From: Candidatus Saccharimonadota bacterium
GTDB taxonomy: Bacteria > Patescibacteriota > Microgenomatia > UBA1406 > GWC2-37-13
DNA length: 32,000 bases
Reading direction: 5' to 3'
Assembly (NCBI GenBank): GCA_016699265.1
Contig: CP064967.1
Location: forward strand, 390,001 to 422,000
Below the pieces are notes generated by a model that was given only the letters and a program-made list of their open reading frames with translations, had not been told where the DNA came from and searched no databases. Both the position numbers and the translations under genes were made by a program. Position 1 is the stretch's first letter. Each line of letters starts with the position of its first letter. This document shows, in pieces, positions 8,763-30,650 of this stretch.

Positions 8763-9986
8763 CTAAGCTCGAAGAGGATATAAATCATTAATTCTGGTCA
8801 GTTCTGCGATCAGCTCTTTTCGATCCATCCCGAGTTGCGCTGCGAACTCACGTGTAGTTGGAGGACACTTTCCTGAGTCAAGCATCGAGAGTATGGTCCA
8901 TTGTTTTCTGGTGAGGCCAAGGTTGCCAATTTCAGCATCTGAAGAAGGGGTTACCAAAGGGGCGTTTCTTCCATGCTCATCTGCAGTAAAATTATCTCGA
9001 AGTAATGCAAGCCCGTCAGTGTAGATACTTTTTGCAAAATCTATGGATCTGCCTGTTGCCTCCGCTATTTCGGACCAAGTTTGTTCCCTACCGTCAAATA
9101 TTCCGGTCCTACGTCGAATGACCTCACCTACAACTCGAGGTAACTCAGCAAGCAAACGCATTGCCTCATCTGAAGCGTGATTTTGGAGCGCAACCTCATA
9201 CGCAGGCGTAGTGCCTCTATCCTCGAGAAACTCCTCCAGAGTATAGTCCTTCTGAGGACCTTTAACCGTTGCAACGGGTTCCTGGATTGATCTGAAATGT
9301 TGCGCTATCTTTGCTTTCAGTACCTCGTCAACTTCTACGATAGGAATTTGCATACGATCTGCGATTTGCTCAGGAGAAATTTGTTCTGTGCCAAATTTCT
9401 GAACAAGATCAGCTACAGTTGTATCAACTGCTTTCGACAGACGATTGAGGTCTTCGGGAAGCCTGACTGGATTCCCCATTTGCCCCACCAGCTTTGATAT
9501 CCTACTGCGAATCTCCCTCGATGAAAAGGTAGTGAATCTAAATCCTCGCTCAACCTCAAATCGCTCAACTGCACGCATCAGGCCTATATTTCCTTCCTGA
9601 ACCAAGTCCTCCAGAGCGACACCTTTCCCTTGGTATCGATTGGCGAGGCAAACCACGTATCTGAGATTGTGAAGTGTAAGGTCGTCGGTAAGATATTGAA
9701 TAGCTGGACCGTTTCCATGCTGCCGAGCCTCGTCAAGCAGACGAAATCTTTGTGCATGTTCGTTATGAGTGTATACCGGAACGCTGCCAATGGCCCGCTT
9801 ATACTCCGCAAAGGATGACACTGCCATTACTTCCTGCAAAGATCTCGGTCGAGTTTCAGTCGTTAATCTCGTTTCCCTTTCGTGTATTGCCATAAAAATA
9901 TCTGAAGAACAGAAAGGTATATTATAGCTTTTTGAGGCTCTATAATCAATTAATAACTCGAAGTATTCATCTTGCACGTTGGCCAC
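8763..9986 (-). CDS. Sigma-70 family factor (group-3-like) with an extra C-terminal HTH segment
   Basis: Region 2 reads LEDLVQEGNIGLMRAVERFEVERGFRFTTFSSREIRSRI. Regions 3 and 4.2 are present (TWSEIAEATGRSIDFAKSIYTDGLALLR). An additional ~70 aa includes LTRKQWTILSMLDSGKCPPTTREFAAQLGMDRKELIAELTRI. The start codon is GTG. Confidence 0.85.
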   Translation of the reverse strand: MANVQDEYFELLIDYRASKSYNIPFCSSDIFMAIHERETRLTTETRPRSLQEVMAVSSFAEYKRAIGSVPVYTHNEHAQRFRLLDEARQHGNGPAIQYLTDDLTLHNLRYVVCLANRYQGKGVALEDLVQEGNIGLMRAVERFEVERGFRFTTFSSREIRSRISKLVGQMGNPVRLPEDLNRLSKAVDTTVADLVQKFGTEQISPEQIADRMQIPIVEVDEVLKAKIAQHFRSIQEPVATVKGPQKDYTLEEFLEDRGTTPAYEVALQNHASDEAMRLLAELPRVVGEVIRRRTGIFDGREQTWSEIAEATGRSIDFAKSIYTDGLALLRDNFTADEHGRNAPLVTPSSDAEIGNLGLTRKQWTILSMLDSGKCPPTTREFAAQLGMDRKELIAELTRINDLYPLRA

Positions 9987-11417: not shown

Positions 11418-12105
11418 TTACAGATAATAACAAGATAACAGAGACAGTGATTCTCCAACGGTATAAACCGATTTCCCCGTCTTTAAACGTACTTCAATAC
11501 TAAGCAATTTTTCATAAAAATCAAGAAGATTTTTGGTATCCCATTTGAAAGCCTGAGCTTTTAGTTTACCTACCTGCCACGACTGCATTCGCGTAGGAAC
11601 CTCACCAAGTCGAATAGCTAGTAGTGATCGAATGTGACGGGTGAGCATGATCTGCATAAAAAGTTCGGTTGTTGGAGTTACAAGACTGTAAAACTCGGCG
11701 AGGAATTTTTGAGGTTTGAAGGGTAACATTGATCGAGAAGCGTAAATACCGATGAACTCAGTTTGAAGTCCTTAACAACTCCCAAATCGGCAGTTTTGAT
11801 CTCCCTTTTCCCATATTTGCTTCCCAGATAAAAACAGAAATCTCAGATGATTTTGAGATCGTTAATAACGACTTATATAAATCGCCGCTTCCTTTCCTTG
11901 TTATTTTTTTTGAGGCATTTTCGAGGAGGTATATTGGTATCTCGAAAAGTGACATAGGTTGAGTATCTTGCAGACTAAGATCTATACATTCTGCAGCTGT
12001 TATCGTTTTTACAGTTGAGCCATGTTTTTCGACATGTAGCTTAAGCACTTCATTCAGGTAGTTTCTTGAGGCGACTGAGTCCTCACCGCAAATAATCGTG
12101 ATCAT
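11418..12105 (-). pseudogene. holA: DNA polymerase III delta subunit, split by one frameshift near 11730-11770
   Basis: The N-terminal fragment reads MITIICGEDSVASRNYL... The C-terminal fragment (..LAIRLGEVPTRMQSWQVGKLKAQAFKW..) lies in another frame. The true ATG is at 12105, because upstream track codons translate the heptad repeat. Confidence 0.6.
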
Positions 12106-12195
12106 CGTATTTCGTATAACGTATAGCGTATAACGTATCAAGTATAAATCATAATGTTTGAATACGGAATACGAGATACCAAATACGGTATACTG
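12106..12195. repeat. Dyad heptad array: 6 x CGTATnn, a 13-nt centre, then 5 x nATACnn
   Basis: The left arm (12106-12147) reads CGTATTT CGTATAA CGTATAG CGTATAA CGTATCA AGTATAA. The right arm (12161-12195) reads AATACGG AATACGA GATACCA AATACGG TATACTG. The array occupies almost the whole spacer between the divergent starts at 12105 and 12201. Confidence 0.92.
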
Positions 12196-12200
12196 AAAAT

Positions 12201-16716: not shown

Positions 16717-19938
<3,222 letters not shown>

Positions 19939-24993: not shown

Positions 24994-26265
24994 ATGTTAA
25001 CTATTAAACAAATTACCGCCTACGAAATAATTGACTCAAGAGGTTATCCTACTGTTGAAGCAGCTGCATTAATGAGTAACGGGCGTACTATTAGGACAAG
25101 CGTACCATCTGGAACTTCTGTCGGGAAGTATGAAGCTCTAGAACTACGTGATAAAGATGACAAGAGATTTGATGGAATGGGAGTTACAAAGTCCGTAAGT
25201 ATCATCAATGATGTACTTGCACCTAAATTAGTTGGAGTTTCTCCCAGTAAATTCAGAGAAATTGACGAATGGATGATTAAGGCAGATGGAACTAAGAATA
25301 AGAGCAAGCTAGGTGGCAATACCACTCTTGCTATGTCTCAGCTTTTTATTAAGTCCGCCGCTCAGGAAGAAGGAATGTCTACATACAGTTTTGTTAATAG
25401 AGAGTATAAAAATAGGTTTAAGTCAGAGATGCCGTTACAGAAAATACCTACACCAATCTTTAATATTATTAACGGTGGAAAACATGCGAATAATAATCTC
25501 GAGTTCCAAGAGTTCCAGGTAATTCCTTCATCATCACTCCCCTACACCAAGGCTTATCAGATCGGAGTCGAGATTTTTCACGAACTTAAAAGAGTCTTGC
25601 TTTATAGAAATGCAAATGTCTCGGTTGGAGAAGAGGGAGGATTTGCACCAAACTTCACAACGAACATAGACGCAATTGAGGTAATTAATGAAACAGTACT
25701 TCAAAAAAATCTTAAGATGGGACTCGATATATTTCTTGGACTCGATGTGGCTTCTTCACATTTTTTCAAGGATGATAGATATTATGTAAAGGATAAGCCC
25801 CATCCTTTAACAAAAGATGAGTACCTTGAGTTTATTGTCAGCCTCACAAAAAACTATTCTTTATTATGTCTTGAGGATCCTCTAAATCAAGATGACTTTG
25901 AAGGTTGGTCAAAACTATTAAAAACTATGGCCCGTGACATTTATCTTATTGGGGACGATCTTCTTGCAACTAATAAAGAAAGACTTCTCAGAGCTATTAA
26001 GGATAAAGCATGTAGCATGGTGCTCGTGAAACCAAATCAAATTGGAACTATCTCAGAAATCATGGAGGTTGTTCAGATAGCTAAGGCAAATGATCTTGCC
26101 GTGCTGGTATCCCATAGATCGGGAGAAACAAATGATGACTTTATTGCAGACTTTGCTGTTGGAGTTCAGGCAGACTTCGTTAAGTTTGGAGCACCTTCAC
26201 GAGGTGAGCGCGTCGCAAAGTACAATCGTCTCTGGCAGATTGAACGAGAAAAACTCTCTAAGTAA
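24994..26265 (+). CDS. eno: Enolase
   Basis: MLTIKQITAYEIIDSRGYPTVEAA.. begins at the internal ATG 24994. The motifs SHRSGETND and KPNQIGT are present. Confidence 0.95.
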   Translation: MLTIKQITAYEIIDSRGYPTVEAAALMSNGRTIRTSVPSGTSVGKYEALELRDKDDKRFDGMGVTKSVSIINDVLAPKLVGVSPSKFREIDEWMIKADGTKNKSKLGGNTTLAMSQLFIKSAAQEEGMSTYSFVNREYKNRFKSEMPLQKIPTPIFNIINGGKHANNNLEFQEFQVIPSSSLPYTKAYQIGVEIFHELKRVLLYRNANVSVGEEGGFAPNFTTNIDAIEVINETVLQKNLKMGLDIFLGLDVASSHFFKDDRYYVKDKPHPLTKDEYLEFIVSLTKNYSLLCLEDPLNQDDFEGWSKLLKTMARDIYLIGDDLLATNKERLLRAIKDKACSMVLVKPNQIGTISEIMEVVQIAKANDLAVLVSHRSGETNDDFIADFAVGVQADFVKFGAPSRGERVAKYNRLWQIEREKLSK

Positions 26266-26268
26266 CTT

Positions 26269-26355
26269 CGTATTCCGTATATCGTATCGCGTATTTCGTA
26301 TTCTGTGCTATATTTTGCTCTATACTAGATACGTTATACCAAATACGATATACGA
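26269..26355. repeat. Dyad heptad array: 5-6 x CGTATnn, a centre, then 5 x nATACnn
   Basis: The left arm reads CGTATTC CGTATAT CGTATCG CGTATTT CGTATTC (TGTGCTA). The right arm reads TATACTA GATACGT TATACCA AATACGA TATACGA and ends 3 nt before the ruvA ATG. CGTATATCGTAT (26276-26287) is the exact reverse complement of 26343-26354. Confidence 0.92.
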
Positions 26356-26358
26356 ATC

Positions 26359-26936
26359 ATGATAGGTAGAATAAAAGGCAAACTAGTTGAGATCAATGGG
26401 AACATTGGTCTTGTTGAAACTTCATCAGGGCTTTCGTACGAAGTTTTTCTTCCACCAGCTTTATGCTCATCCGTCTAAACACCGCAGTAAGATTGAGACA
26501 CATCTTAGGTCCGTGACGACGCTCACATTCTGTTTGGCTTAGGATAAAAAGATAAAGAGTTATTTAAGCTTCTACTTTCAGTTTCGAGTTGGACCAAAAA
26601 CTGCATTTCAGGTCACTTATACTGGTAGCGATGAACTGATCTCGGCAGTTCAGACGAATGACGTTGCTATTTTCAAAAATTCCAGGACTCGGAAAGACTC
26701 AAAGAAAATTATTCTTGAACTTTCCAGAAACTGAAGTCGAGTTCGATATGCAAAAATGAATCTAAGCGATGAAGACAAAACGGTAGTTATGCACTTATGG
26801 CTCTTGGTTACAAATCTCAAGAAGCAAAAAACAAGCTCTCAGTAAAATTTCAAAAGGATTATCGATTGAAGAAAAAATAAAAGAAGCCCTCAAAAACACT
26901 GCTACAAAAATAACTTTTAACTGCTCACGCTCATAA
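26359..26936 (+). pseudogene. ruvA: Holliday junction DNA helicase RuvA, heavily frameshifted
   Basis: MIGRIKGKLVEINGNIGLVETSSGLSYEVFLPP is followed by RuvA-like strings in shifting frames: VRDDAHILFG, KDKELFKLLLSVS, VGPKTAFQV, SDELISAVQTNDVAIF, KKIILEL and LSIEEKIKEALKN. Confidence 0.7.
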
Positions 26937-27008
26937 ATTCTTTTCCAGATTACCACGTATCCAAATATGAAAGAAATTCGAAGAATGGGGATTTATTTGG
27001 CTTTGGAG

Positions 27009-27021: not shown

Positions 27022-28002
27022 ATGTCAGGAAATGAGATTACAACGCTTAGACCTTTAAAGATTACTGAGTATATCGGGCAGAGTGCGGCGGTACGAACTC
27101 TAAAAGTATTTATAGAAGCGGTTAAGAAAAAGGGTTTGCCAACAGAGCACATTCTGCTCTATGGACCTCCAGGAATTGGAAAAACTACGTTAGCAAACAT
27201 CATAGCTCATGAACTCGATGGAGAGATGAAGGTCACATCGGGTGCCGCAATGCAAAAGTCTGGAGATCTTGCAGCGATACTTACCAATCTTAAGGACAAT
27301 GACATCTTATTTATTGATGAAATTCATCGACTACCTAAAACGGTTGAAGAGATGCTCTACCCCGTTATGGAGGACTACTTTCTAGACATAATTATCGGCA
27401 AAGGTCCTTCTGCCCGTACCGTTCGACTACCGATTCCACGGATTACGATAGTAGGTGCCACGACTCGACTCGCTTTATTATCTGCGCCACTTCGTGACAG
27501 GTTTGGACTTCTGATGAGACTAGACTACTACACAGATTCAGAAATGGAGAAGATTGTAGATAGATCGGCCAACCTCCTTAATATGAAGATTGCAAAAAAT
27601 GTGGCAAAGGAAATAGCAAAAAGGTCTCGCCGTACTCCCCGACTCGCAAACAGAATTATTAAGCGCGCTCATGACATGTTAGTTGTGAATAAGCATGCTG
27701 AGATTTCAGAGACAGTATTGACCGAATTGTTTTCTTTGTTGGAGCTTGATAACTTTGGACTTACCGATGTTGATAGAAAATACCTAAAGACTATAGGAGT
27801 TAAGTTTCAGAATGTGCCAATTGGTGTAAATACGATCGCTTCTGCCATGTCGGAAGATATTCAGACGATTGAGGACTTCATTGAACCATATCTCTTACAG
27901 ATTGGCTTTTTGAAAAGAACCTCAAGAGGACGACAGCTTACTCCAAAAGCCTTGCTACACCTCGGTGTAAAGGGTGATCCCGATCAACCACAGCTGGTAT
28001 AA
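27022..28002 (+). CDS. ruvB: Holliday junction DNA helicase RuvB
   Basis: The 326-aa ORF has Walker A GPPGIGKTT and Walker B ILFIDEIHRL, followed by TTRLALLSAPLRDRFG. Confidence 0.95.
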   Translation: MSGNEITTLRPLKITEYIGQSAAVRTLKVFIEAVKKKGLPTEHILLYGPPGIGKTTLANIIAHELDGEMKVTSGAAMQKSGDLAAILTNLKDNDILFIDEIHRLPKTVEEMLYPVMEDYFLDIIIGKGPSARTVRLPIPRITIVGATTRLALLSAPLRDRFGLLMRLDYYTDSEMEKIVDRSANLLNMKIAKNVAKEIAKRSRRTPRLANRIIKRAHDMLVVNKHAEISETVLTELFSLLELDNFGLTDVDRKYLKTIGVKFQNVPIGVNTIASAMSEDIQTIEDFIEPYLLQIGFLKRTSRGRQLTPKALLHLGVKGDPDQPQLV

Positions 28003-28093: not shown

Positions 28094-28176
28094 GCCGCGG
28101 TGGTGGAATGGCAGACACGCAGGACTTAAAATCCTGTGACCGCAAGGTCGTGAGCGTTCGACTCGCTCTCGCGGCA
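28094..28176 (+). tRNA. tRNA-Leu(UAA), class II, no encoded CCA
   Basis: The acceptor pairs GCCGCGG with TCGCGGC. The anticodon arm is CAGGA-CTTAAAA-TCCTG. There is a long variable arm, and the T arm is GAGCG-TTCGACT-CGCTC. Confidence 0.9.
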
Positions 28177-28180
28177 CATC

Positions 28181-28252
28181 CAGTAATCAGATTTCGGTTT
28201 TCAGTTTTCAGTCATTATGATCTGACAACTAATCACTGACCACTGATAACTG
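28181..28252. repeat. Dyad heptad array: 5 x CAGnnnn, a 6-nt centre, then 5 x CTGnnnn
   Basis: It reads CAGTAAT CAGATTT CGGTTTT CAGTTTT CAGTCAT | TATGAT | CTGACAA CTAATCA CTGACCA CTGATAA CTG... It lies between tRNA-Leu(UAA) and tRNA-Thr and runs up to the tRNA-Thr 5' end. Confidence 0.88.
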
Positions 28253-28257
28253 TCCCA

Positions 28258-28331
28258 GCCCTTCTAGCTCAATGGCAGAGCAGCTGTTTTGTAAACAGTC
28301 GACTGCAGTTCGATTCTGCAGAAGGGCTCCA
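28258..28331 (+). tRNA. tRNA-Thr(UGU), CCA encoded
   Basis: The structure is GCCCTTC TA GCTC AATGGCA GAGC A GCTGT TTTGTAA ACAGT CGAC TGCAG TTCGATT CTGCA GAAGGGC T CCA. Confidence 0.9.
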
Positions 28332-28473
28332 GCTTATATCTAAAGATAAAGCTGTTTTGTAAACAGTCCCGACCTCAGTCGGGGTTCTGCAGAAGGGCTC
28401 CAGCTTATATCTAAAGATAAAGCTGTTTTGTAAACAGTCCCGACCTCAGTCGGGGTTCTGCAGAAGGGCTCCA
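28332..28473 (+). repeat. Two identical tandem 71-bp units derived from the 3' two thirds of tRNA-Thr
   Basis: The unit is GCTTATATCTAAAGATAAA + GCTGTTTTGTAAACAGT + CCCGACCTCAGTCGGGG + TTCTGCAGAAGGGCTCCA. The second block is identical to the tRNA anticodon arm. The third is a new hairpin replacing the T-arm 5' half. The fourth is identical to the tRNA 3' end including CCA. The copies lie at 28332-28402 and 28403-28473. Confidence 0.95.
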
Positions 28474-28476
28474 GAC

Positions 28477-28917
28477 TTAGAAAGTGTTCGTCCTATTAGC
28501 GATAACAAGACCTTCGACTCGAATAATACTATCTTCGTAAGGACTTAAACTGCAAACGCCTCCTCCCTCCATCCTTAATACACCCTCAGGGTGCCTTATA
28601 TCCTTATTGAGAGTTATAGTACCGCCGATTCGTACGGAAATCAAAGAATCGATATCGGGCTGTTTCCTCATATACTCAATGAGTATAGGAGTAGCACAGA
28701 AATTTGGATCAATAGCTTTTAGAGATGCTGAGGCGCCATAAGGAATTGATAAAACGCCACCAGAAAAAACTGGTAATCTGTGAGAACCTTCTATGGCATG
28801 AGTTAGGACAAATATAGTAAATGGATTGGTAGTAAATTGAAGAAGTGATCTTCCCAATTTTTTACCAGATTCTGGTTGATTTGTTAATCTACTGCGGCTC
28901 TCAATGTTTCCCGACAT
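28477..28917 (-). CDS. Hypothetical protein
   Basis: This is a 146-aa ORF with no recognised motif. TATAAT (28928-28923) sits 5 nt upstream of its ATG. Confidence 0.5.
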   Translation of the reverse strand: MSGNIESRSRLTNQPESGKKLGRSLLQFTTNPFTIFVLTHAIEGSHRLPVFSGGVLSIPYGASASLKAIDPNFCATPILIEYMRKQPDIDSLISVRIGGTITLNKDIRHPEGVLRMEGGGVCSLSPYEDSIIRVEGLVIANRTNTF

Positions 28918-29099: not shown

Positions 29100-29128
29100 C
29101 TCTTCTTGAATGTTATAATTGATAAATT

Positions 29129-29210
29129 GGGCAAGTGGTGAAACTGGTATACACGCAGTCTTGAGGAGGCTGTGCCGAAAGGCGTGGAGGTTCAAGTCCT
29201 CTCTTGCCCA
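29129..29210 (+). tRNA. tRNA-Leu(GAG), class II
   Basis: The acceptor pairs GGGCAAG with CTTGCCC. The anticodon arm is CAGTC-TTGAGGA-GGCTG. The variable arm contains GCCGAAAGGC, and the T arm is GGAGG-TTCAAGT-CCTCT. Confidence 0.88.
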
Positions 29211-29219
29211 CCCGATGCG

Positions 29220-29277
29220 TCCCGATTGTCATCGGGGTGCCCGAAAGGGCGTGGAGGTTCAAGTCCTCTTCCCGACA
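29220..29277 (+). other. tRNA-Leu 3'-half-like element (hairpin, variable arm, identical T arm, new acceptor 3' strand)
   Basis: The sequence is TCCCGATTGTCATCGGGG TGCCCGAAAGGGCG TGGAGGTTCAAGTCCTCT TCCCGAC A. The T arm is identical to the adjacent tRNA-Leu(GAG), and the variable stem is 1 bp longer. No 5' acceptor strand or D arm is present. Confidence 0.8.
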
Positions 29278-29282
29278 CTACT

Positions 29283-30650
29283 CTACTTTCTTGTTACTGT
29301 GTAGCTGTAAGGATAGTATAAAAATGCTGCTGGTAGCTCATCGACTAGTATTTTTTGAAAGTCGAGATATTCCTTCTTACGGTTTGCAGGCTCAATATAT
29401 TTTCTTCCATCCTCAAGTAATTTATCAATTCGAACATTTTTAATATTTACTATGTTGCCTCTGCCAGCTTGGGTTGAGTGCCAAAAAAAATACTGATCGG
29501 GGTCTGTTGGGATTTTCCAAAATGCCAAAAACATATCGAAATCATTCTGATTATCCGGTGTTCCATAGACTATGCTCGCGTTCAAACCTGCATCTTTCAG
29601 TGCATTCTCGATAATATTAGCTTGATCTTCATAGTCAAAGTATGATCGGATCGTAAGTTCAGCCGATACCGATGCAGTTGCAGGCTTGAGTTGCTTTCTT
29701 GCTTCTACCGGATCGTACAAACTTTTCTTTAACTGCGTGTTGTATGCCCAAGACGTGGGTGATATTGGTCCTTCTGCAAGTTCGCCGAATGCAGAAAGTG
29801 TTGGTCTGGGAATCGCTAATGAGATGCTTTTTCGAAAGTCTTTATCGGCAAGTGACTGTCTTGATTCATTAAAGAATAAGGTCAGTACGGTAGAGTAGTC
29901 AATCTCGCGTTCCACTTTCGTATTTTTCCAGCTCTTAAAGCCGTCGGCAACGCTTTTTCGATAGATCTTCATCTCAGTAATATTTCCGAGTTTGTAGGCA
30001 TTGATCATCTTTGTTTCGCTGTCGTAGAATCTATAGGTTAGAGGTTTTAGATCTTTTTTATTTGGTGTTAAAACTAATTCAATTACATTATTTTCCTGTC
30101 CTAGCTTCATTTTTTTAACTTTATAGTTTCCTACTACGCCATGCAGAGGATAGCGGATTAAAGGCTTTGTTAAATATGTGGGGAAAATAGTCAATGGCCT
30201 CTTAAGATTAAATTCAATTTGAAAATCGTCAATTTTTTTAACCTCAACATCCTGAAAATTAAACTCAAGATCTTCTGCAGTTAAAGATTTATTATCATCC
30301 CAAATTAGATTTTTTTTAAGATATATATTGAATTTTTTGCCATCTGCACTTCCTTCCCATCGCTGTGCGACTGCAGGCTTCACAACTCCCTGGTTATCTA
30401 TATAAACAAGACCATAAGAAATATTGTTCAGAATCTCAGAAGGTAATGAGAGTGGTTCGTAAGATCCAACCATTCCAACGACCCTTGTATCGGTGAGAAA
30501 TAATGCGTCAAGCTGGGATGAAAAAGAGAGCAAGCTCAAAATGAACAATAAGCTTAAAAAAAAACTCAAGAAAATCATCTTGTTATGTTTTTTTCCAAAC
30601 TCACGTATTAACCAGTAATAGTATCGGAAGGTGTTTCCTTGCTGGGTCAT
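29283..30650 (-). CDS. ABC transporter substrate-binding protein, family 5 (peptide/nickel type)
   Basis: The 455-aa ORF has an N-terminal TM/signal anchor. SBP_bac_5-like strings are present (VKPAVAQRWEGSADGKKFNIYLKKNLIWDD..LTAEDLEFNF). Confidence 0.8.
   Translation of the reverse strand: MTQQGNTFRYYYWLIREFGKKHNKMIFLSFFLSLLFILSLLSFSSQLDALFLTDTRVVGMVGSYEPLSLPSEILNNISYGLVYIDNQGVVKPAVAQRWEGSADGKKFNIYLKKNLIWDDNKSLTAEDLEFNFQDVEVKKIDDFQIEFNLKRPLTIFPTYLTKPLIRYPLHGVVGNYKVKKMKLGQENNVIELVLTPNKKDLKPLTYRFYDSETKMINAYKLGNITEMKIYRKSVADGFKSWKNTKVEREIDYSTVLTLFFNESRQSLADKDFRKSISLAIPRPTLSAFGELAEGPISPTSWAYNTQLKKSLYDPVEARKQLKPATASVSAELTIRSYFDYEDQANIIENALKDAGLNASIVYGTPDNQNDFDMFLAFWKIPTDPDQYFFWHSTQAGRGNIVNIKNVRIDKLLEDGRKYIEPANRKKEYLDFQKILVDELPAAFLYYPYSYTVTRK

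Follow-up and report, generated by a model that had tools for sequence, protein, structure and literature searches.

The design in which a tRNA gene is followed by tandem units, each containing its last 19 nt with CCA, is already known from tyrT of Escherichia coli. Behind this gene, repeats of 178 bp, each with the 3′ end of tRNA-Tyr, were reportedly described by Egan and Landy in 1978 and by Rossi et al. in 1981. We checked the tyrT locus of E. coli K-12. TRF gave a period of 178 with 3.1 copies, overlapping the last 19 nt of tyrV, and the CCA-ending 19-mer AATCCTTCCCCCACCACCA occurred six times. The sRNA rttR and the small protein tpr are annotated in the repeat region. The 3′ETS sponges and the rtT/RttR RNA are precedents for sRNAs derived from operon trailers. 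According to a passage in PMC3318445, which cites Bosl and Kersten 1991, a tyrT repeat unit encodes the RttR sRNA. In addition, partial tRNA genes are known to arise when genetic elements integrate (PMC9897764).

A comparable arrangement is present in the stretch of DNA analyzed here (32,000 nt; hereafter, the window). Directly 3′ of the encoded CCA of a tRNA-Thr(UGU) gene, the repeat search detected two units of 71 nt each with 100% identity. The features of the locus are as follows; the parts of unit 2 are those of unit 1 with an offset of +71.

28094 to 28177, plus strand: tRNA-Leu(UAA), which heads the Leu-Thr tRNA pair 3′ of ruvB (ARAGORN; Rfam, 53 bits).
28178 to 28257, plus strand: Leu-Thr spacer of 80 nt, heptamer repeats, forward and then inverted (TRF; fold; comparison with the sister species L010).
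28258 to 28331, plus strand: tRNA-Thr(UGU), functional-looking, CCA encoded (ARAGORN; Rfam).
28332 to 28402, plus strand: unit 1, 71 nt (TRF; repeat search).
28332 to 28350, plus strand: unit 1, part 1, AT-rich 19-mer GCTTATATCTAAAGATAAA, 21% GC.
28351 to 28367, plus strand: unit 1, part 2, anticodon stem-loop GCTGTTTTGTAAACAGT, 17 nt.
28368 to 28384, plus strand: unit 1, part 3, GC hairpin CCCGAC-CTCA-GTCGGG(G), CCCGACCTCAGTCGGGG.
28385 to 28402, plus strand: unit 1, part 4, tail of tRNA-Thr with CCA, TTCTGCAGAAGGGCTCCA, its last 18 nt.
28403 to 28473, plus strand: unit 2, the same as unit 1 at every base; the junction of its terminal CCAG with the flank is polymorphic among strains.
28477 to 28917, minus strand: convergent conserved hypothetical gene, 146 aa; in relatives, its stop lies 2 nt from the 3′ end of tRNA-Thr.

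The tRNA-Thr(tgt) was called at 28258-28331 by ARAGORN and scored 63.8 bits with Rfam. TRF reported a period of 71 with 2.8 copies (score 331) over 28282-28479. In the repeat search, a 19-nt segment of the anticodon arm and the 19-nt tail segment TTCTGCAGAAGGGCTCCAG each occurred three times, the tail copies at a spacing of 71 nt; the identity of the anticodon arm between the unit and tRNA-Thr comes to 19 nt when the flanking bases are counted. The GC hairpin has 6 bp, and 9 bp in the fold with flanking bases. The predicted folds also contained a hairpin at the junction between units, CAGCTT-A-TATC/TAAA/GATA-AAGCTG. The last base of the array is 28473; 3 nt separate it from the stop codon (28477-28479) of the convergent ORF of 146 aa. 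Since only about 0.03-0.12 matches each are expected for the 19-mer and the GC hairpin in shuffled sequences, the array is not a product of chance. An earlier sequence-only reading of the window had described two exact 71-bp units behind tRNA-Thr(UGU), which keep the 17-nt anticodon stem-loop and the last 18 nt with CCA, contain the AT-rich 19-mer and the GC hairpin, form the junction hairpin and stop 3 nt before the convergent stop at 28477. ARAGORN, TRF, the repeat search and the folds bore out this description at every point; the feature is real and was correctly described.

The same reading held that the units are not extra tRNA genes, and our results agree. ARAGORN made no call in the units, and Rfam gave no tRNA match in 28332-28473 even at E<=10. 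Inside a unit, no partner for GAAGGGC was found in the window sequence. Other Rfam families did not match the units, either at gathering thresholds or at E<=10. No ORF of more than 23 aa overlaps the array; the ORFs there are of 20-23 aa, one of them largely within the tRNA.

As in E. coli tyrT-tyrV, a tRNA is followed directly by head-to-tail units, each of which contains the last 19 nt including CCA. The E. coli units lie in the 3′ trailer of the operon. Here, the array is probably part of the Leu-Thr operon transcript, forming a structured 3′ trailer that would be cut off as the 3′ end matures. Among the differences, the units are of 71 nt instead of 178, the anticodon stem-loop is kept, and a GC hairpin is present. 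There is no ORF like tpr, which is small and basic, among the 20-23-aa ORFs of the array, and no sequence similarity to tyrT; moreover, the array abuts a convergent gene. Transcription of the units with the operon, processing to a stable RNA (rtT/RttR) and termination in the repeats are features of the tyrT type.

The gene for RuvB (27022-28002) lies just 5′ of the tRNA pair. Among the RuvB relatives in the genome collection are contigs with the titles Candidatus Roizmanbacteria and Candidatus Microgenomates (CPR), and the three closest ones (94%, 88% and 87% identity) bear the uninformative title "uncultured Gammaproteobacteria". In the sister species (L010), whose RuvB is 94% identical, there is no unit: tRNA-Thr is followed by 2 nt and then by the stop of a homologous convergent ORF (152 aa; BLASTP E=9e-22). 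The sole difference between the tRNA-Thr of the window and that of L010 is one compensated T-stem pair. The same abutting arrangement of tRNA-Thr and the convergent gene, again without units, was observed in L047. Units were also absent from L046 and L048 and from every relative carrying this tRNA-Thr. When metagenomes were scanned with a pattern of the anticodon arm and the tail, only four contigs were obtained, one with units (the same species) and three from relatives without them. Because tRNA-Thr adjoins the convergent stop in both L010 and L047, the ancestral state is, judging from these loci, a tRNA-Thr whose 3′ end touches the convergent gene. The last unit keeps this junction, with GGGCTCCAG-ac-TTA in the window versus GGGCTCCAG-g-TTA in L010. 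The 80-nt Leu-Thr spacer appears to be new as well, since L010 has 1 nt there.

The convergent 146-aa protein gave no family hit and has no relative in Pfam, NCBIfam or PDB. Its identity to the orthologues of L010 and L047, where the neighboring tRNAs are nearly identical, is no more than 34-37%. The gene is fast-evolving; the RuvB of L010, by contrast, is 94% identical. In the T-stem of tRNA-Thr, the change from C-G in L010 (8133-8157) to T-A in the window (28300-28324) creates a 10-nt palindrome, TTCTGCAGAA. Another palindrome, AGTCGACT, adjoins it, and the duplicated region of tRNA-Thr is unusually rich in palindromes.

By exact-protein look-ups, the same species was recognized in at least 10 independent assemblies. 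The window contains two units, and L002 (JGI 3300043411) contains three. In two NCBI MAG contigs (L001 and L050), a 100-N scaffold gap lies within the array with units on either side, giving at least three units. L049 (OBID01003167), which is 96.8% identical to the window over 5.3 kb, has at least two units, and the contig ends within the second. At least seven short-read contigs stop in or at the array; those from Logan, ENA and JGI stop within the first unit or exactly at the border. The copy number is not fixed or not resolved, and short-read assemblies may mis-state the counts. Identical head-to-tail units whose number differs between strains are what defines a minisatellite (VNTR). The array resembles bacterial minisatellites also in that the units are intergenic and tens of nt long, with a number that varies between strains or assemblies. 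It differs in that the unit is visibly derived from the adjacent tRNA, and the allelic counts rest on assemblies.

The last unit terminates in CCAG in the window and L054, in CAAT in L001, L002, L050 and L055, and in CAAG in L053. Thus, the terminal CCA of the last unit is not conserved among strains. The interior sequence of the units was the same in all strains, which differ by 0.3-3% overall, and the adjacent Leu-Thr spacer differs at about 7 of its 80 nt among strains with invariant units. This invariance is a weak hint of constraint and is not significant, because only about 34 nt per unit are beyond gene conversion from the live tRNA; for the 36-38 tRNA-derived nt per unit, the live tRNA-Thr can serve as a donor that corrects changes. 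The sequence-only reading had taken the identity of the two copies to imply recent duplication or homogenization, or selection. The absence of units from relatives supports a recent duplication, and nothing points to selection. It had also named absence or variation of the units among close strains as an outcome that would speak against it, and this is largely what was observed: the sister species has no units, and the copy number varies or is not resolved.

Compared with other assemblies of the species, ruvA of the window (26482-26991) has some 16 small indels, and no intact ORF is left. It adjoins a deletion of about 700 bp, where a 172-aa ORF that is present in L002 and L003 has been lost. 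This state of ruvA is either a strain pseudogene or a low-quality consensus, and it bears on the trust to be placed in the repeat copy number of the window.

We consider that the array is probably a young, species-restricted minisatellite of unstable copy number, which arose from a non-functional mosaic copy of tRNA-Thr. It gives the impression of an unstable leftover of tRNA-gene rearrangement, not of a functional RNA of a new kind. Among the roles proposed in the sequence-only reading, a minisatellite seeded by the tRNA fits best. In a first step, the 3′ two-thirds of tRNA-Thr, from the base before the anticodon stem through CCA and the following G, would have been duplicated in tandem; the junction would have formed at a CAG/CTG microhomology and been filled by the 19-nt near-palindromic AT-rich insert. 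In a second step, the variable loop and the 5′ T-stem segment of the copy would have been replaced by, or reshaped into, the perfect GC hairpin, so that a cloverleaf became impossible. In a third step, the 71-nt unit would have been amplified, and its expansion and contraction would be ongoing. Replication slippage or unequal recombination between the repeats of the 19-nt tail and the anticodon arm is the likely process, by which the units would stay identical. As a result, 142-213+ nt lie between tRNA-Thr and the convergent gene, which abut in relatives; a putative benefit as a buffer between the convergent transcription units would be secondary.

The origin of the segments that do not match the tRNA was also considered. 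A derivation of the AT-rich 19-mer from the 5′ part of tRNA-Thr was rejected, as the alignment was not significant (p=0.16). For the GC hairpin, an origin in situ out of the variable loop and the 5′ T stem gave a weak p=0.04, and when the hairpin was compared with the acceptor strands of the native tRNA-Leu(GAG) (TCCCGAC...GTCGGG[A/G]T), none of 5000 shuffles scored as high. These values carry the reservation that the two arms of a perfect hairpin depend on each other and that the comparison was made post hoc.

If the array is such a minisatellite, its practical weight in Roizmanbacteria-like genomes is that of a breakpoint in assemblies and of a possible strain marker (VNTR); it is also a trap for tRNA annotation. 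It would further give a clean snapshot of tRNA genes seeding repeats, because the sister species preserves the ancestral state with the tRNA abutting the convergent gene.

Three other explanations rank below the minisatellite, in the order of a functional trailer, a scar of an att site or mini-element, and an assembly artefact. The first is possible but rather unlikely: the units may form a functional structured trailer, either as a stack of terminators or insulators against the 146-aa gene or as the source of a stable tRNA-derived sRNA cut from the 3′ trailer of the operon. The array lies exactly between convergent units that abut in relatives. All three non-tRNA segments form hairpins, of which there are three per unit. 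Compared with shuffled sequences, the unit folds better (z -3.1), as does the whole region (z -5.5), and this holds for both strands (z -3.1 to -5.5). However, such an excess is expected, because the array is built of a tRNA arm and palindromes. The invariance of the units among strains, a similar GC hairpin in a second tRNA relic at another convergent junction (described below), and the RttR sRNA encoded by one tyrT repeat unit in the cited passage of PMC3318445 are also in line with a function.

As for termination, the GC hairpin is followed by GUUCUGCA, and on the minus strand, CUUUAUCUUU comes after the hairpin of the anticodon arm. The consensus scan found no terminator in 28332-28473 on either strand, and thus no GC hairpin with a U tract of the intrinsic type; terminator-like sites are not enriched in this genome, so the scan is weak and uninformative here. 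A promoter scan of the array gave nothing. In the minimum-energy fold as predicted, the last copy of the tail was the partner of the true 5′ acceptor strand of tRNA-Thr, and the array could therefore compete with correct tRNA folding rather than aid it. Furthermore, relatives manage without units, the copy number varies, the terminal CCA is mutated in some strains, and no Rfam family matches. As far as can be read from the DNA, nothing was found that speaks for selection or for a role as a decoy, a processing substrate or a terminator. A more specific version is quite improbable, namely that the units would be expressed and processed to a stable tRNA-derived sRNA with the Thr anticodon stem-loop and CCA, which would be unchargeable and would act as a decoy or sponge, or that the units would act as a modular insulator separating the convergent genes. 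The target of such a decoy could be, for example, an anticodon-directed enzyme or nuclease. If this version were true, the GC hairpin in the second relic would mark a recurrent, selected module in the CPR lineage. The importance of the array would be greater only if the units were a discrete expressed RNA, as in the analogous E. coli tyrT repeats.

The second explanation, improbable in our view, is that the units are insertion scars at the 3′ end of the tRNA. The 19-nt tails would be att cores, and the 52-nt interior would be the remnant of a small integrative or miniature element that was later duplicated. The insert is indeed flanked precisely by the repeat of the tRNA tail, and three other loci show related structures. 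In L048 (about 704-872), the last 18 nt of tRNA-Arg(UCU), GATTCGCGGTGGGGTCAC, recur after a hairpin-forming insert of 79 nt. In L011 (about 9000-9260), an insertion at tRNA-Leu(UAA) contains a small, putative GIY-YIG-like ORF. The first 20 nt of this tRNA are repeated on either side of the insertion, and the upstream copy is split by the 20-nt palindrome CCTGCCTGCCGGCAGGCAGG. In L056 (Logan DRR783857), the 146-aa protein and tRNA-Arg are identical, and the sequence is completely different right after the 3′ end of tRNA-Arg, so that within the species a tRNA end is the breakpoint of a rearrangement or an insertion.

However, no integrase or transposase family was detected among the called genes from about 7 kb upstream (L002) to about 9 kb downstream (L001) of the array, where the genes are housekeeping ones or lack a Pfam hit. 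Neither the hairpin nor the tRNA tail matched any of 2.9 million viral contigs, and BLAST of the unit against phages and plasmids gave only partial matches at the chance level (E ~0.5). A MITE or REP-like repeat would be dispersed through the genome in multiple copies; the 19-mer and the exact hairpin were confined to the array in the window and all loci retrieved, which cover about 45 kb of the genome of the species. In addition, the interior has the exact anticodon arm of the host, which is unexpected for a foreign element. The repeats are 71 nt apart with no integrase family near, which is not the pattern of an integrase att duplication; the sequence-only reading, which had set aside a classical att duplication, holds in this respect. 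With the partial or pseudo-tRNA genes left by integration or rearrangement, the array shares a direct repeat of a 3′ tRNA segment beside an intact tRNA, the repeat being non-canonical and not predicted as a tRNA. It differs from them in that the repeats are tandem, identical and 71 nt apart, without cargo or integrase, and in that the fragment is not a contiguous 3′ piece but a mosaic of the anticodon arm and the tail with a foreign-looking middle.

An assembly artefact is hardly credible: although all short-read assemblies break, gap or differ within the array and the window's own assembly has many small indels in the nearby ruvA, identical units were present in no fewer than five assemblies that are independent and come from different samples (GCA_017991865.1, GCA_017984055.1, JGI 3300043411, OBID01003167 and several Logan runs), and the doubt is confined to the copy number and does not touch the existence of the array.

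A second tRNA relic was observed about 850 nt 3′ of the array, in the stretch 29214-29282 behind the live tRNA-Leu(GAG).

29128 to 29213, plus strand: tRNA-Leu(GAG), acceptor GGGCAAG, of a type other than the native one of the sister species (ARAGORN; Rfam; comparison with L010).
29221 to 29279, plus strand: relic of the native tRNA-Leu(GAG) (comparison with L010; repeat search).

The relic begins with a hairpin, CCCGAT-TGTC-ATCGGG(G), at 29221-29237, the 3′ arm of which is the old 5′ acceptor strand. The variable arm, the T arm and the 3′ acceptor strand follow (TCCCGACA); the D and anticodon arms are deleted. Over 43 nt, positions 29237-29279 of the window are identical to positions 44-86 of the native tRNA-Leu(GAG) of L010. 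The sequence ATCGGGGT of the relic is the counterpart of the native 5′ end GTCGGGAT, and is ATCGGGAT in most strains of the species. The 3′ acceptor strand and the discriminator extend to 29277, which leaves 5 nt to the stop of a convergent SBP_bac_5 gene at 29283. The live tRNA-Leu(GAG) of the window has the acceptor GGGCAAG, as in L014 and L019. Since the live copy is of another type, the native tRNA-Leu(GAG) has been displaced and gutted, and its 3′ end persists beside the stop of the SBP_bac_5 gene. This relic is a clear case of a partial tRNA gene.

Both the Thr array and the Leu relic lie at the exact meeting point of a tRNA operon and a convergent gene. The hairpin of the Thr unit (CCCGAC/GTCGGG) resembles that of the Leu relic (CCCGAT/ATCGGG; permutation p=0.0014, with the reservation given above for such values), from which it differs by a compensated change in the stem. 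Their likeness could reflect either selection for a hairpin or a shared module. A search for the 19-mer, the hairpin and tail duplications, as proposed in the sequence-only reading, had a mixed outcome: in about 45 kb, the 19-mer and the exact hairpin belong to the array only, a related hairpin lies at 29221-29237, and other duplications of tRNA fragments were found in relatives.

When exact fragments of 13 nt or more were counted up to 400 nt from each tRNA, they were detected for 3 of 63 tRNAs in Roizmanbacteria-like loci, two of these in this window, versus 0 of 17 tRNAs in other loci. The insertion seen in L011 is absent from L012, and a similar remnant without an ORF and with the palindrome variant CCTGCCTGCCTGTAGGCAGG is present in both L046 and L048. 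Together with the array and the Leu relic, the fragment duplications in relatives show that tRNA loci are active rearrangement sites in these reduced genomes. Among relatives, the Leu, Thr, Arg and Leu tRNA genes also vary in order and orientation.

The 79-nt insert of L048 has terminal inverted repeats of 15 nt, and the sequence past the repeat of its tRNA-Arg tail resembles the region 3′ of tRNA-Ala in the window. In L013, L014, L019 and L020, the tRNA-Leu(UAA)/Thr/Arg block is inverted relative to ruvB, and tRNA-Leu(GAG) lies next to ruvB instead. This suggests inversions with endpoints at both tRNA-Leu genes in these more distant relatives. In L020, the palindrome TCCCGACTATAGTCGGGA was observed 5′ of tRNA-Leu(GAG), the acceptor strand of which is GTCGGGG.

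The genome is rich in short tandem repeats, as detected by TRF. The Leu-Thr spacer folds at -21.9 kcal/mol (z -3.6). It belongs to a set of intergenic "heptad hairpins", in which runs of a 7-nt repeat are followed by an inverted run, giving long periodic hairpins (z -3.6 to -4.3). They were observed at 28178-28257, 26262-26362 and 12100-12200 of the window and in tRNA spacers of L015 and L017. The sequence of the heptamer varies by locus and species, and the hairpins often flank tRNA genes. To our knowledge, no family of this kind has been described.

Elsewhere in the window, which is without a 16S gene, tRNA-Ala lies upstream of the 23S rRNA gene (16717-19936, minus strand), and a group I intron at 17048-17290 (Rfam, 71.7 bits) was detected within this gene.
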